Shown: piece by piece, positions 42,707 through 57,552 of the stretch
Layout of the letters: each line of letters begins with the position of its first letter
Position numbering within the stretch: the stretch's first letter is position 1
Assembly: GCA_964016885.1 (NCBI GenBank)
Contig: OZ024740.1
Coordinates: forward strand, 88,040,001-88,104,000
Length of the DNA: 64,000 bases
Source of the DNA: Eledone cirrhosa
Taxonomy: Eukaryota
Direction of reading: 5' to 3'
Made by a program: the position numbers and the translations under genes
Notes under the pieces: generated by a model
The model's input: the letters and a program-made list of their open reading frames with translations, nothing else
The model's database searches: none
Told to the model about the DNA's origin: nothing

Positions 42707-42984
42707 GGAAGAAGAAGTTGAAAATGCAATTGAAGTCTTTAAGAAGGTGTATTTACAATTGCTTATAACTTTACCGGTTTTACAAGTTTCATGAATTTTC
42801 AAAGAGATGGCGACATGGGGGCTATTGCCGACTTGTAACGTGCAGTTATAAGTCGTCATAGCAACATATCTCACCATCTCTCTTAACCTTTGAAACTCAT
42901 GAAACTTGTAAAAGAGGTAAAGTTATAAGCAATTGTAAATAAATCTTCTTAAAGAAACCAATTGCATTTTCAACTTCTTTTTCC
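42707..42984. repeat. Fold-back palindromic element beside TA-rich repeats
   Basis: Arms 42707-42810 / 42874-42984; each arm has GAAA-CTTG-TA-AAA. Confidence 0.85.
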
Positions 42985-43154
42985 GATACTTTTACCCGTG
43001 CGAGATATATTAATAAAAAACTTTCTTCCCAATATATATACATATATACATATATACGTATATATATATATATATATATATATATATATATATATATATA
43101 TATATATATATATATATATATATATATATATATATATATGTACGTATATATATT

Positions 43155-46100
43155 ACTGTTCTTCTAGCCCTCAATTTTCCCACCGTTATGGATGGATGAG
43201 CTGAGAATAAATTTGAGCAACTCTGAATCAATCGATGAATATGAATCTGCGAGCTACCAAGCACCCACGTGAAGCGCCAACCCAGAGACCCTTCCCCACG
43301 AGTGTCGACAAATGCCCAAAACTCCGAGTTGGTACCATCAATGGCTCAATGAAAGGAAGAACAGGAGAAATCGTAGAAATGCTAGAGCAAAAGGAAATTG
43401 ATGTATGCTGTGTGCAAGAGACTAGATGGAGAGGAGAGTCTGCCAGAGTCCTCGTAGGAAAAAGTCGGTGCTACAAATTTTTCTGGGTGGGAAATGACGA
43501 TGGGATGGGTGCTGTAGGTATACTACTAGCTGACAAGTGGTAGTAATCTCAGTGTACAGGGTAAATGCAAGAATCATTAAACTCAGCTAGTCCTGAATAA
43601 AACAATTACCACAATAATATCAGCTTACGCACCCCAATCGGGGCTGCCAGACGAACTTAAGGATAGGTTTTACGAGTCCCTAATACACACTACTGCTCTA
43701 ACAGACGACAATGACTTCCTAATCATCGCAGGAGATTTTAACGGACACGTAGGTAAACACTGCGACGGCTTCAATAGAGTACATGGAGGCCATGGGGTTA
43801 GCACAAGGAATGAGGAAGGATTCAGACTTCTAGAGTTCTGCGACGCCAATGACATGTCGATATGTAACACAAACTTTAAAAAACCCGACAACCACCTATA
43901 GATCAGGGGAGCACTCTAGTCAGTTAGATTTTATCCTCATCAGAGGACGTGACAGATGGACGGTCGTAAACACAAAAGCCTTCCCTAGTGAGGAATGTAC
44001 ATCCCAACATAGCTTAGTTGTCAGCGACCTCACGGTCAGAACTAGACGAACCCGGAAACAGCGGCCAACCAGGAGAAGAAAGATCTGGAAGCTGAAAGTC
44101 CCCTCAACCAGTAACAGATTTAAAGATATTTTACTCAACGCCTACGACAGTAAAGAACAGATAGAGACATTTAATGTAGAAGAGAACTGGGAGTTCCTAA
44201 AAAATAATTTACTAGAGGCGACGGATGAGGTCTGTGGCTGGAGTAAGACCTCAAGCAGGAGGAGAGTGACTTGGTGGTGGAACAATAAGGTAGATGAAGC
44301 AGTTAAGGCCAAGAGACAGGCATGGAAAGAATGGAAGAACGGGGGGAGCAGGGTACATTACATAGAGACCAAGAGGGAAGCTAGGCGACAAGTATACTTA
44401 GCTAGGAGGGAAGCAGAGGATAGAAAATTCAAGCATGTTTTGCAACGTGAAGACCAGAAACAGGAGGTATTCAAGATTGCGAGGCAGTGTGTCAGAGATA
44501 GTTGTGATGTCATTGGAGAGAAGTGTATCCGGAATGATAAAGGTGAGCTTGCCCTCACAAGTGCTGAGAAGAAAGATGCATGGAAGAGTCATTATGATAG
44601 ATTACTAAATGAGGAGAATGCATGGGAAGAAGAGACCCTACCCCAAGTAGACCCTATAGAGGGACCAGCAGTATAAGTCAGCAGCAGCGTAGTAAGTAAG
44701 GCAATCAAAGATATGAAGATGGGGAAGGCAACCGGTCCATCGGGTATAGCTGCTGAGATGCTAAAGGCATCTGGGTCTGTAGGTCACACTATAACCACAC
44801 GTATTGTTAACCAGGTAATACTAGAAGGTGCCATACCAAAAGATTGGTGCAGTAGCATCATTGTCAACTGCTACAAAGTTAAAGGCGATGCACTAGATAG
44901 AGGAAACTATAGAGGTATAAAGTTGATGGACCAGGTCATGAAAGTAACAGAAAGAGTTATAGCACAGTTGATTAGGGACCGGGTGAAAATAGACGAGATG
45001 CAATTTGGGTTTGTACCTGGAAGAGGCACCACTGATGCCCTCTTCCTTGTGAGGCAATTACAGGAAAAGTACCTAGCTAAAAGTAAGCCACTCTACTTGG
45101 CATTTGTCGACCTTGAGAAAGCCTTTGACAGAGTTCCACGTGCTGTAATCTGGTGGGCTCTTAGAAAACTAGGAGTAGATGAATGGTTTGTGAAAGCGGT
45201 ACAAGCCATGTATAGGGGAGCAGTCAGCAAAGTTAGGATTAGCAATGAGTATAGCGAGGAATTTAGCGTACAGGTTGGGGTCCACCAGGGCTCTGTTCTT
45301 AGCCCTTTCCTGTTCATCATAGTCCTGCAGGCAATAACGGAGGAGTTTAAGACCGGATACCCATGGGAACTCCTGTATGCTGATGACCTCGCACTCATAG
45401 CTGAATCTATGGTAGAACTAGAGAAGAAATTCCAAACTTGGAAGCAGGGACTAGAAAGAAGGGTCTCAAAGTCAACATGACAAAGACTAAGGTCCTTGTA
45501 AGTAGACGAGAAAACAGAACCCAGATCCCCTCAGGGAAATGGCCTTGCTCAGTATGTAGGAAAGGTGTAGGTAGGAACTCCATTCTCTGCCCCAAATGCA
45601 AACAATGGGTACACAAGAGATGTAGCGGGATCTCAGGAAGCTTAATTAAGAATGTAGGTTTCACATGCAGCAGCTGTGCTGAGACAGCAAGCAGCAAACA
45701 GCCACAGGAAACAAGTACCACCAAACTCTGGGAGGGCTCTGTAGAAACAGTAGACAGCTTATGCTACCTAGGTGACCGAATTAGCAGCGGAGGTGGGTGT
45801 TCAGAAAGTACAATAACTAGGGTAAGAAGGGGATGGAAGAAGTTTAGGGAACTACTACCACTGCTAGCTGCAAAAGGCTTCTCCCTCAGAATGAAAGGCA
45901 GACTGTATGATACGTGTATCCGAACAGCAATGTTGCATGGTAGTGAGACCTGGGCGCTGAAGGTGGAAGACTTACGTAGATTAGAGAGAAACGAAGCCTG
46001 CATGCTCCGATGGATGTGTAACAGTAATATACGTGAACGACAAAGCATAAATGAATTGAAAGAGTGACTGAGCATAAGAGGAATCAAATGCTGTGTGCAG

Positions 46101-55707: not shown

Positions 55708-55920
55708 AGGAAAAAAGTATGACCCCGACGGCAGAGCTCAAGCCGTTTCGACGGCTATTTCTGGACTAAATTTAGTATTTAGTCCAGAAATAGCCGTCAA
55801 AACGGCTTGAGCTCTGCCGTCGGGGTCATACTTTTTTCCTATTTCTCACTCTACTACCCTAAGTATTGAGTACTCTGGTGCGTTATGGTCGATCTGGTTT
55901 CTTACCACAATTCCTTCGTT
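55708..55920 (+). mobile_element. Family X element with a near-perfect 5' fold-back hairpin
   Basis: 55708-55832 is a palindrome with ~60-bp arms and a 5-nt loop; the remainder matches 3431 and 4521; (TA)n flanks. Confidence 0.88.
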
Positions 55921-57552
55921 ATATATATATATATATATAAAGTCTGTTGGTGCATTGACCGGGGACACCATAAATCAGGGTTGTGCTGCTTGCTGAGGAA
56001 GGAGCAGAGTGGGTATAAAGGAAGGTTTAAACACTACTCTAACCCTAACCGTTTCGGCACAATTCATTCCACATACAAGCCGAAAATGCTAGGCGTTACG
56101 TTTGGGTTTATACCTTCCTTTACACACACACACGTACACACACACGTACACACACACGTACACACACACACACACACACACACACACATATATATATATA
56201 TATATATATATATGTGTGTGTGTGTGTGTGTGTGTGTGTGTGTGTGTGTGTGTGTGTGTATAACACTTTCGTTCTCATGGGGTGCGAGACATAGGACATC
56301 AATGAATTTTTACCAAACCCGCTGTTCCCATCTTTCTCATGGTCTCTCACTCTCTCACTCTCTCTCTCTCACACACACACACACACACACACACACACAC
56401 ACACACACACACACACACACACACACTCTCTCTCCCTCTCTCTCTCTCTCTCTCTCTCTCTCTCTCTCTCACACACACACACTCTCTCTCTCTTTTGTTA
56501 AACCGGTTACATTACGAACAAACTATCGCGTCAATAGATATCTCAAAACAATCTAAATCTTGAGAATCTCATAATATTATCTATTGGTTTTACATTAATC
56601 ATCTGCCCTGCTCTCTCTTTGGCTACATTATCTTGCCACATGATTCCTAATATTTTACGTAGAGTTTTGTGTTCAAAACCTAGTAATTTAACGTAGTGTG
56701 CTATTTAATGTAGTGTGCCACGACCGATGTCGATAAAGTGGTATTGATCTTGCCAAGAATATATAAAATTTTGCCTAAGTGCATTTTGAAACATAGTTGG
56801 ACTTCTGTATTGATTTTAACATGCCCATTTCTTGTTCCATATTTTTAATTATATTTCTAAACTTCAAAATAAGTGAGCAATTACTAGTAACAATAGTCCC
56901 CAAGTTCCTGAAGTGATTAGTGGTTTTTATTATTTTTCATTCTATGCTGCAATTGGATGGATTAACGTAATTTATATTCATCATTTCTGTCTTTGAATAG
57001 TCAGTAACAGGATAGAAACTTCAATTATGATTACAAGACTGTCTAATTGCATCTGGTGAACAGGAAAAATTCTCATAGTAGTTCGGAAGTCAAGTAATGT
57101 AATTAAAATACTTAATGGGGTATTAATCTGTCACCTATTGTCACGAAGGTGTACTACAGATTAATGTTAAGCAGAATTGAATGCAGTAATGAGAAGGTTC
57201 TGAGGGACAGAGAAAGCATGTTTCAGAAAGGTGAGGTTATAATGAACACATCATTACAATAAACATATAATACAAAAGGCAAACGAAACGAGAATGTTAT
57301 TAACCCTATCTATATAGATTTTCAAAAGGACTTATTAATACACAACGGAAAACATCGTCAAAAAGATAGGACATACCTTGAATATGGGATGGAATCTGGA
57401 ATTTTCAGCGCTTTCGAAAACGAGTGTTCCATTTATACAGCCATTAAATTAGCGTGCAAGTGGCTGAGCATACTACGGACACATCTATGCGTAACGTTAT
57501 TCTCAGGGCGATTCAATGAGATACTGTGTGATAAGGGAAGCCTTTTGAATTA

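Follow-up and report, generated by a model that had tools for sequence, protein, structure and literature searches.

We analysed a 64,000-nucleotide stretch of the Eledone cirrhosa genome (assembly GCA_964016885.1, contig OZ024740.1, positions 88,040,001 to 88,104,000 of the forward strand; hereafter the window), in which four short palindromes associated with TA repeats had been noticed. Judged from their sequences, these palindromes are 5′-truncated Penelope-like elements (PLEs) that carry an inverted second 3′ end and lie in (TA)n. We consider it probable that they are head-to-head PLE insertions into TA repeats, in which both ends of the target primed complementary DNA (cDNA) and both cDNAs likely stalled at a strong RNA structure. 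In the most frequent of the families, C, the breakpoints of the arms cluster in stem II of a predicted hammerhead ribozyme.

The host assembly comprises 3.0 Gb and is rich in microsatellites. Coordinates are given as window positions, and element positions (-/+) are counted from G12 of the hammerhead GAAA as 0. All four palindromes of the preliminary description exist: family A (42703-42988, self-match 80%), family B (50086-50677, 85%), family C (55709-55839, 95%), and the degenerate family D (about 56017-56121), and all of them adjoin TA/CA microsatellites. Their ends had been set too short in three cases, where one-sided tails lengthen the stumps: C extends as far as 55919, A reaches about 43033, and D extends leftward to about 55942. 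Nor are the four unrelated, as had been supposed: they fall into three unrelated families, D being homologous to C (alignment score 56; best of 500 shuffles 28).

The PLE assignment came from long relatives that share the ends of the stumps and encode reverse transcriptase (RT) and GIY-YIG frames; the suggestion that ribozyme-bearing retroelements could here be mistaken for DNA miniature inverted-repeat transposable elements (MITEs) was thereby borne out. At five loci with long B copies (L066, L067, L068, L073, and L082), the same strand carried a GIY-YIG frame 0.9-1.4 kb upstream, and pieces of an RT were present in L071. In long copies of C the GIY-YIG frame lay about 0.7 kb upstream, again on the same strand, at six loci (L122, L123, L130, L131, L139, and L150). 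The C loop-II motif has 1,060 exact matches in the genome, and inspection by eye of the first 100 of these places revealed 14 close pairs, 27 bp to 3.8 kb apart, whose 3′ ends all faced outward; such pairs form a continuum from stumps to long copies. RT-like frames were found in all six long inverted C pairs that were fetched, three of which also held a full endonuclease, and the pairs were 5′-truncated. The C RT resembled Atlas clusters with RVT_1, HTH_animal, and GIY-YIG members (0.91-0.95). Among four stretches upstream of long A copies, one (L416) contained a decayed GIY-YIG frame, about 1.3 kb from the copy. A similar endonuclease accompanies the same ribozyme in a sister family of A, found in unselected regions (L181 and L171). 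A cysteine-rich linker precedes the GIY-YIG domain in both C and A. Family D is counted as a putative PLE by homology to C only. Three long A copies (L416, L417, and L418) shared short interspersed repeats at common positions in the 3′ region, and the A parent seems to have carried these repeats already.

Long relatives of all four families have a complete type-I hammerhead fold, with three stems round a conserved core, and in these non-inverted copies stem I and the 5′ core half lie directly upstream of stem II, as the preliminary description had anticipated. The half missing from the stumps is not the CUGANGA that it had named. The 5′ core half is the variant UUGANAA (a U3-A8 swap) in A, C, and D, and CCGAUGA in B, so that a CUGANGA filter overlooked it. 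A canonical CUGANGA parent of C was also sought (CTGANGA followed, after 8-38 nucleotides, by the C 3′ half) and rejected, as the 30 inspected of 42 matches were chance junctions or neighbours. In 33 long C copies the 5′ core reads TTGANAA, position N7 taking all four bases and the rest being nearly fixed, and the consensus fold of 22 C copies is a type-I hammerhead in which stem II forms a two-part hairpin of about 50 nt. Families C and D share a 5-bp stem III, and D has the same TTGANAA core with a 6-bp stem II. Family A has a core of the same type (TTGAAAA in 22 of the arms matched by motif), a very short stem II, and GAAA-CCGG-TA as its 3′ half. The B core reads CCGATGA in 16 copies and CTGATGA in five, with a stem II arm of 79 nt; variant B1 reads CCGAUGA (U4C) and variant B2 CUGAGGA. 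Stem III is minimal and palindromic in A and B, and both have U-U at 10.1/11.1. By eye, double changes were seen in stem III when C is compared with D, and in stem II when A is compared with its sister family. One C subfamily has the cores CTGAGAA/CTGAAAA, with a 3-8 mismatch. One abundant C subfamily (e.g. L197) reads CCCCTGAGAAG, giving a C3-A8 mismatch or a shifted register; this is possibly a cleavage-dead lineage that still spread. In both C subfamilies (L164:6685-6814 and relatives) the short 3′ end (+43) lies where an extended stem I ends, and the ribozyme fold may also mark one RT start site in C.

The C copies were sampled as tail-motif places in genome order, and hence without selection for 5′ structure, yielding 95 insertions from the first 17 Mb of one contig. 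One extra match was the second arm of an insertion already counted, and the inverted arm of L250 was excluded as spurious. Exact genome matches numbered 42,289 for the C tail motif and 6,823 for the C 5′-core motif. An inverted arm was present in 74 of the 95 copies, and 66 of these 74 arms ended at +43, while the tailed arm ends at +120; the remaining 21 copies were single-armed. The deepest point reached by either arm fell between -26 and -10, an interval of 17 nt, in 64/95 copies, and anywhere in stem II in 69/95. Only seven copies passed the ribozyme, and each of them then ran at least 376 nt further. Breakpoints per nucleotide amounted to 0.050 in the 3′ half of stem II (-26 to -1) vs. 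about 0.002 upstream, a difference of about 25-fold; the upstream rate was taken from 11 events among 25 copies at risk, in a separate set of 30 arms chosen by the loop-II motif. Tailed arms starting at the predicted cleavage site (+23/24) were found in only 3-4 of the 95 copies. In contigs from sequencing runs, aligned to the window and to one long C copy, we observed strand-switch joints at 6743-6751 and loose TA ends at both 3′ ends, which were not counted as evidence. The summed contig depth dropped steeply across stem II; such depth is no copy number and the runs may stem from the assembly's own sample, and it was left unused.

The preliminary description had placed the axis of all four palindromes in stem II and proposed that inversion points be mapped across copies for clustering in stem II or III. 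An axis in stem II holds for C, in part for D and B, and fails for A; clustering in stem II is thus not a general rule. In A the deepest point lay in stem II in none of 30 copies and at -100 to -27 in 16/30, near a weak upstream hairpin; the A stop lies 15-45 nt upstream of the ribozyme and the short end at +71 to +79. Among 28 copies of B (L288 and L289 being left out as duplicates of L286 and L287), 11 had a short inverted arm. One arm ended in stem II or loop II in nine of these 11 and the 5′ core was retained in one arm in seven, with the short end at +67 to +74 in ten and at +72 by realignment. D copies are old and their alignments noisy; 12/23 ended in stem II and 9/23 at the 5′ strand of stem I. 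In B and D some stops fall in stem II/loop II and others at the 5′ edge of the fold. Approximate arm lengths were 60 nt in C and D, 130 nt in A, and 85-170 nt or more in B.

We propose that both ends of the cut target would each prime a cDNA on the element RNA, that both cDNAs would likely stall on reaching the earliest strong structure in the RNA, in C the long stem II of the predicted hammerhead, and that the two cDNAs would then be joined by microhomology or end joining. The PLE parentage, the hammerhead-shaped motif, the two fixed 3′ ends, the subfamily marks, the copy-specific junctions, and the breakpoint cluster are apparent in the copies themselves. The stall is suggested by the position of the breakpoints only, and from the whole pattern we infer two independent cDNAs and their joining. 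Subfamily, junction, symmetry, and depth-correlation statistics were calculated on a subset of 88 C copies. The two arms shared a subfamily block in 27 of 38 copies (shuffles: mean 6.4, maximum 14), 27 of 28 junctions differed between copies, and stumps occurred in at least four C subfamilies that also have long members. Since the arms share their lineage, the junctions are copy-specific, and the same subfamilies have long members, the palindromes were made repeatedly and not from one master; expansion of a few masters is unlikely for the same reasons. The short arm was the deeper one (by >8 nt) in 17 of 73 C copies, about 13 of which show no obvious later deletion, and the tailed arm in 11 of 73. 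Arm depths were uncorrelated (rho = 0.05, n = 66). As the short arm is deeper at least as often as the tailed arm, priming from two ends fits better than copying of one arm from the other.

Several results weigh against this interpretation at one or another of its steps. The C endonuclease matched the Pfam GIY-YIG model with E = 0.069, below the cut-off, a PDB sequence search with the C RT gave no match, and no long D copy with an open reading frame was found among 30 loci bearing the D 5′ core. Covariation within C is thin, with double changes in 2/20 pairs, and folding z-scores were modest (-2.3 to +0.2). The C sample has the narrow origin given above. Near-symmetric junctions were in excess, 25/66 lying within 3 nt vs. 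15.6 expected (p = 0.002), which suits a fold-back of the cDNA or a symmetric central deletion. In about 4 of the 17 copies whose short arm was deeper, the tailed arm seems to have lost internal sequence later, and the arm-depth test is blurred because of such remodelling after insertion. Finally, in B the tailed arm was deeper in 7 of 12 inverted copies, the window copy included.

The strongest competitor, which we regard as a lesser but real possibility, is the mechanism of the preliminary description, in which a single tail-primed cDNA halts in stem II, bends back to serve as its own template, and is joined at the short site to the opposite target end. Common subfamily marks in the two arms (27/38) would follow from it as well, and the symmetric-junction excess speaks for it. 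The native apical loop is preserved, or the 5′ strand reached, in some copies (L019 and L215); in B it is common for one arm to run past the core and for the other to halt in loop II; and PMC3846280, in the passages considered, interprets junction palindromes as self-priming. The tailed arm, however, has to represent first-strand cDNA, and a copy of it cannot extend 5′ past that cDNA, yet the short arm was deeper in 17 of 73 insertions; the asymmetry in favour of a deeper tailed arm that fold-back predicts was not seen (11 vs. 17). Most C junctions also fail to reach the 5′ strand, which would leave no native hairpin for folding back, and the mechanism does not describe A.

It is very unlikely that longer inverted insertions later collapsed to a tolerated arm length, so that the axis was not fixed at insertion. 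Perfect palindromes tend to be unstable, and the copies often have internal deletions and short untemplated bases at the junction. Against such a collapse, arm length differs by family, in keeping with where the ribozyme lies; perfect palindromes with zero loop have survived (L213, L220, and L255); lengths in between occur, at a rate that is low and even; and near-identical C copies show, in part, clustering as well. That the stumps are true DNA MITEs, with terminal inverted repeats moved by a transposase, can hardly be maintained: inverted ends, small size, TA flanks, and one very constant terminus (+43 in C) would agree with it, but the ends are asymmetric with a 77-nt tail on one side only, the centres differ among copies (27 of 28 junctions being distinct), many copies are one-armed (21/95 in C), and RT and GIY-YIG frames are encoded by long copies that share these ends. 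No transposase element with these ends turned up among the long copies, in which no dedicated transposase search was made, and the insertions sit in (TA)n, where a target-site duplication cannot be read.

Beyond two-ended priming as such, we tentatively suggest, with less confidence, that the hammerhead fold may act as a built-in roadblock for the element's own RT, that the length and stability of stem II may set where PLE insertions end, and that a ribozyme whose cleavage insertion does not need may thus turn one retroelement family into tens of thousands of near-perfect DNA hairpins, each of them made anew from two primed ends. At least 42,289 places in the 3-Gb genome carry the family C tail, and about three quarters of the sampled copies resemble TA-flanked MITEs. 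For annotation, searches for CUGANGA overlook the U3-A8 ribozymes of these stumps.

The copies in the window are as follows. The A stump (42707-43033, +) consists of an inverted short arm from 42707 and a tailed arm whose tail (about 42985-43033) ends in TA. Its axis lies about -65 from G12 (turn at -64/-66), about 40 nt upstream of the ribozyme. The right arm holds a complete but degenerate minimal type-I hammerhead (42883-42925, +; core 42890-42896, stem I 3′ strand 42920-42925, with a short stem II and the 3′ half between them), and the left arm a mirror copy of the complete ribozyme (42766-42803, -; core 42796-42802). Both arms of the B stump (50086-50677, +) run to the long 3′ end. The right arm begins at about -100, upstream of the core, and includes a complete type-I hammerhead (50369-50466, +), in which the decayed 5′ core half CTAATGA (50369-50375) is followed by the 5′ strand of stem II (50377-50385, pairing with 50445-50453) and by GAAA-CAATTG-TC (50455-50466); the inverted left arm halts at -23, in loop II, and has the 3′ half only (50311-50345, -). 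The C stump (55709-55919, +) has TA repeats on both sides, a short inverted arm from 55709 (end +43), and a tailed arm to 55919 (end +120), with an axis that falls near 55775, in the apical portion of stem II. The short arm carries the hammerhead 3′ half (GAAA, 5-bp stem III, GUC; 55727-55749, -), and in the half-core of the plus arm (55799-55821, +) G12 is mutated to A. The D stump (55942-56121, -), an old relative of C, has a minus-strand tailed arm to about 55942 and a short arm to 56121, with the junction in stem II/loop II and a 3′ half-core at 56082-56103 (+).

A hammerhead 3′ half-core had been described just beside each axis. This is correct for B and for the minus strand of C; in D the place was right and the register wrong; in A the GAAA-CTTG-TA given as the half-core comprises loop II and a G12 that has mutated, and the family 3′ half, GAAA-CCGG-TA, lies nine bases further on. 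Likewise, the CUGANGA half reported absent from each palindrome is indeed lacking in C and D, whereas A retains a degenerate UUGANAA in both arms and B the CTAATGA named above. In resampled arms a loose half-core occurred by chance in 2-28% on the outward strand and in 12-68% on either strand. Because it is so frequent, a loose half-core is in itself weak evidence, and the motifs are considered real because the long relatives carry the intact hammerhead fold.

Two further C stumps lie in the window, one of another subfamily with its junction in the 3′ strand of stem II (3432-3576, -), and one whose tailed arm ends at about -13 and whose second arm is absent or vestigial (4523-4656, -). A TA-flanked palindrome with 30-bp arms at 50955-51093 was not assigned to a family. 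At 48316-49524 (+) there is a 5′-truncated PLE frame with RT thumb and GIY-YIG motifs by eye and no Pfam match, followed by a canonical CUGAAGA hammerhead (49659-49693, +), with the B stump about 400 bp downstream. The segment 17745-19100 is a truncated PLE flanked by inverted ends of 265 bp (97%), a larger version of the same layout, and its GIY-YIG frame (18057-18494) matched Pfam with E = 3e-5. Two more canonical hammerhead motifs of other families were noted at 62549-62578 (+), with a 57-bp inverted repeat upstream (62043-62410), and at 51828-51856 (-). An Rfam scan of the window gave microsatellite look-alikes of miRNA families and no hammerhead in the 150 of 218 matches listed. A simple scan of 14 unselected 9.9-kb stretches (L169-L182) revealed about 20 short palindromes, most of them TA-flanked and from other families, and the palindrome layout is thus common genome-wide. 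Apart from PLEs, the window holds a cluster of non-LTR element fragments (from elements without long terminal repeats) ending in (TAA)n (19712-27390), with large inverted blocks of 1,261 bp (97.5%) and 806 bp (93%), and an apparently intact open frame of 1,204 amino acids with endonuclease and RT motifs, L1/Tx1-like by eye (29513-33127, +), of which a decayed tandem copy lies at 34339-36684 (+).

Two familiar systems resemble the stumps in outline. Class II MITEs are short, with inverted ends, TA flanks, and high copy number; the present stumps differ in their asymmetric ends, variable centre, and RT-encoding parents. In L1 twin priming, a single target site supplies two primers, and an inverted 5′ segment results; there the segments cover different parts of the RNA, whereas here they overlap, giving a palindrome.

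The closest counterparts are PLEs themselves. In the parts of the literature cited here, PMC8557442 describes PLE insertions that target TA and have an inverted 5′-truncated copy and a tail on one side, and junction palindromes are read, in general form, as self-priming in PMC3846280. With the endonuclease-positive (EN+) insertions of these two sources our families share the head-to-head copy at the 5′ junction, the one-sided tail, the (TA)n target, and the junction palindromes, as well as a C-terminal GIY-YIG domain with an upstream cysteine linker, a linker described for Neptune/Nematis in PMC8557442. Unlike those insertions, most copies here are shrunk to 130-600 bp, and the tails are 45-165 nt vs. 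30-40 bp. The breakpoint distribution and its link to stem II were found here, and the passages on PLEs in PMC8557442 and PMC3846280 give neither. For Schistosoma, PMC4209133 describes, in the portion considered, PLE pseudo-LTR hammerheads with a U3-A8 core and dual minimal hammerhead ribozymes 100-700 bp apart on opposite strands. Type-I topology, U3-A8 (in A, C, and D), opposite-strand pairs, and the minimal palindromic stem III (in A and B) are common to both. The families differ from the hammerheads of that account in the 5-bp stem III of C and D, the 50-80-nt stem II arms of C and B, the U-U at 10.1/11.1 in A and B, and the B1 and B2 cores CCGAUGA and CUGAGGA, all of which are known here as sequence.

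As far as the passages of PMC8557442 and PMC11167929 go, the formation of inverted 5′ ends and the role of the hammerhead in PLEs are posed as open questions. The latter source describes in vitro target-primed reverse transcription by the Anolis Poseidon element PAc, in which both strands of an AT-rich target are cut and extended, the RT starts at two sites on the RNA that define the tail, a dimer is predicted, and insertion did not need ribozyme cleavage. Such in vitro behaviour would permit two cDNAs to be primed, one from each target end. PAc probably belongs to a different PLE clade from the families here, and its 5′ junction formation and stalls are not resolved in that part of PMC11167929. 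In the open-access literature, taken without supplements that may hold breakpoint data, we found no report of a hammerhead stem-II breakpoint hotspot or of such PLE stumps misannotated as MITEs. The 17-nt stem-II hotspot and the arm-depth test offer a direct prediction for the existing in vitro PLE system. Set beside these systems, the palindromes are new families of an already described PLE layout, to which they add the stem-II breakpoint hotspot.

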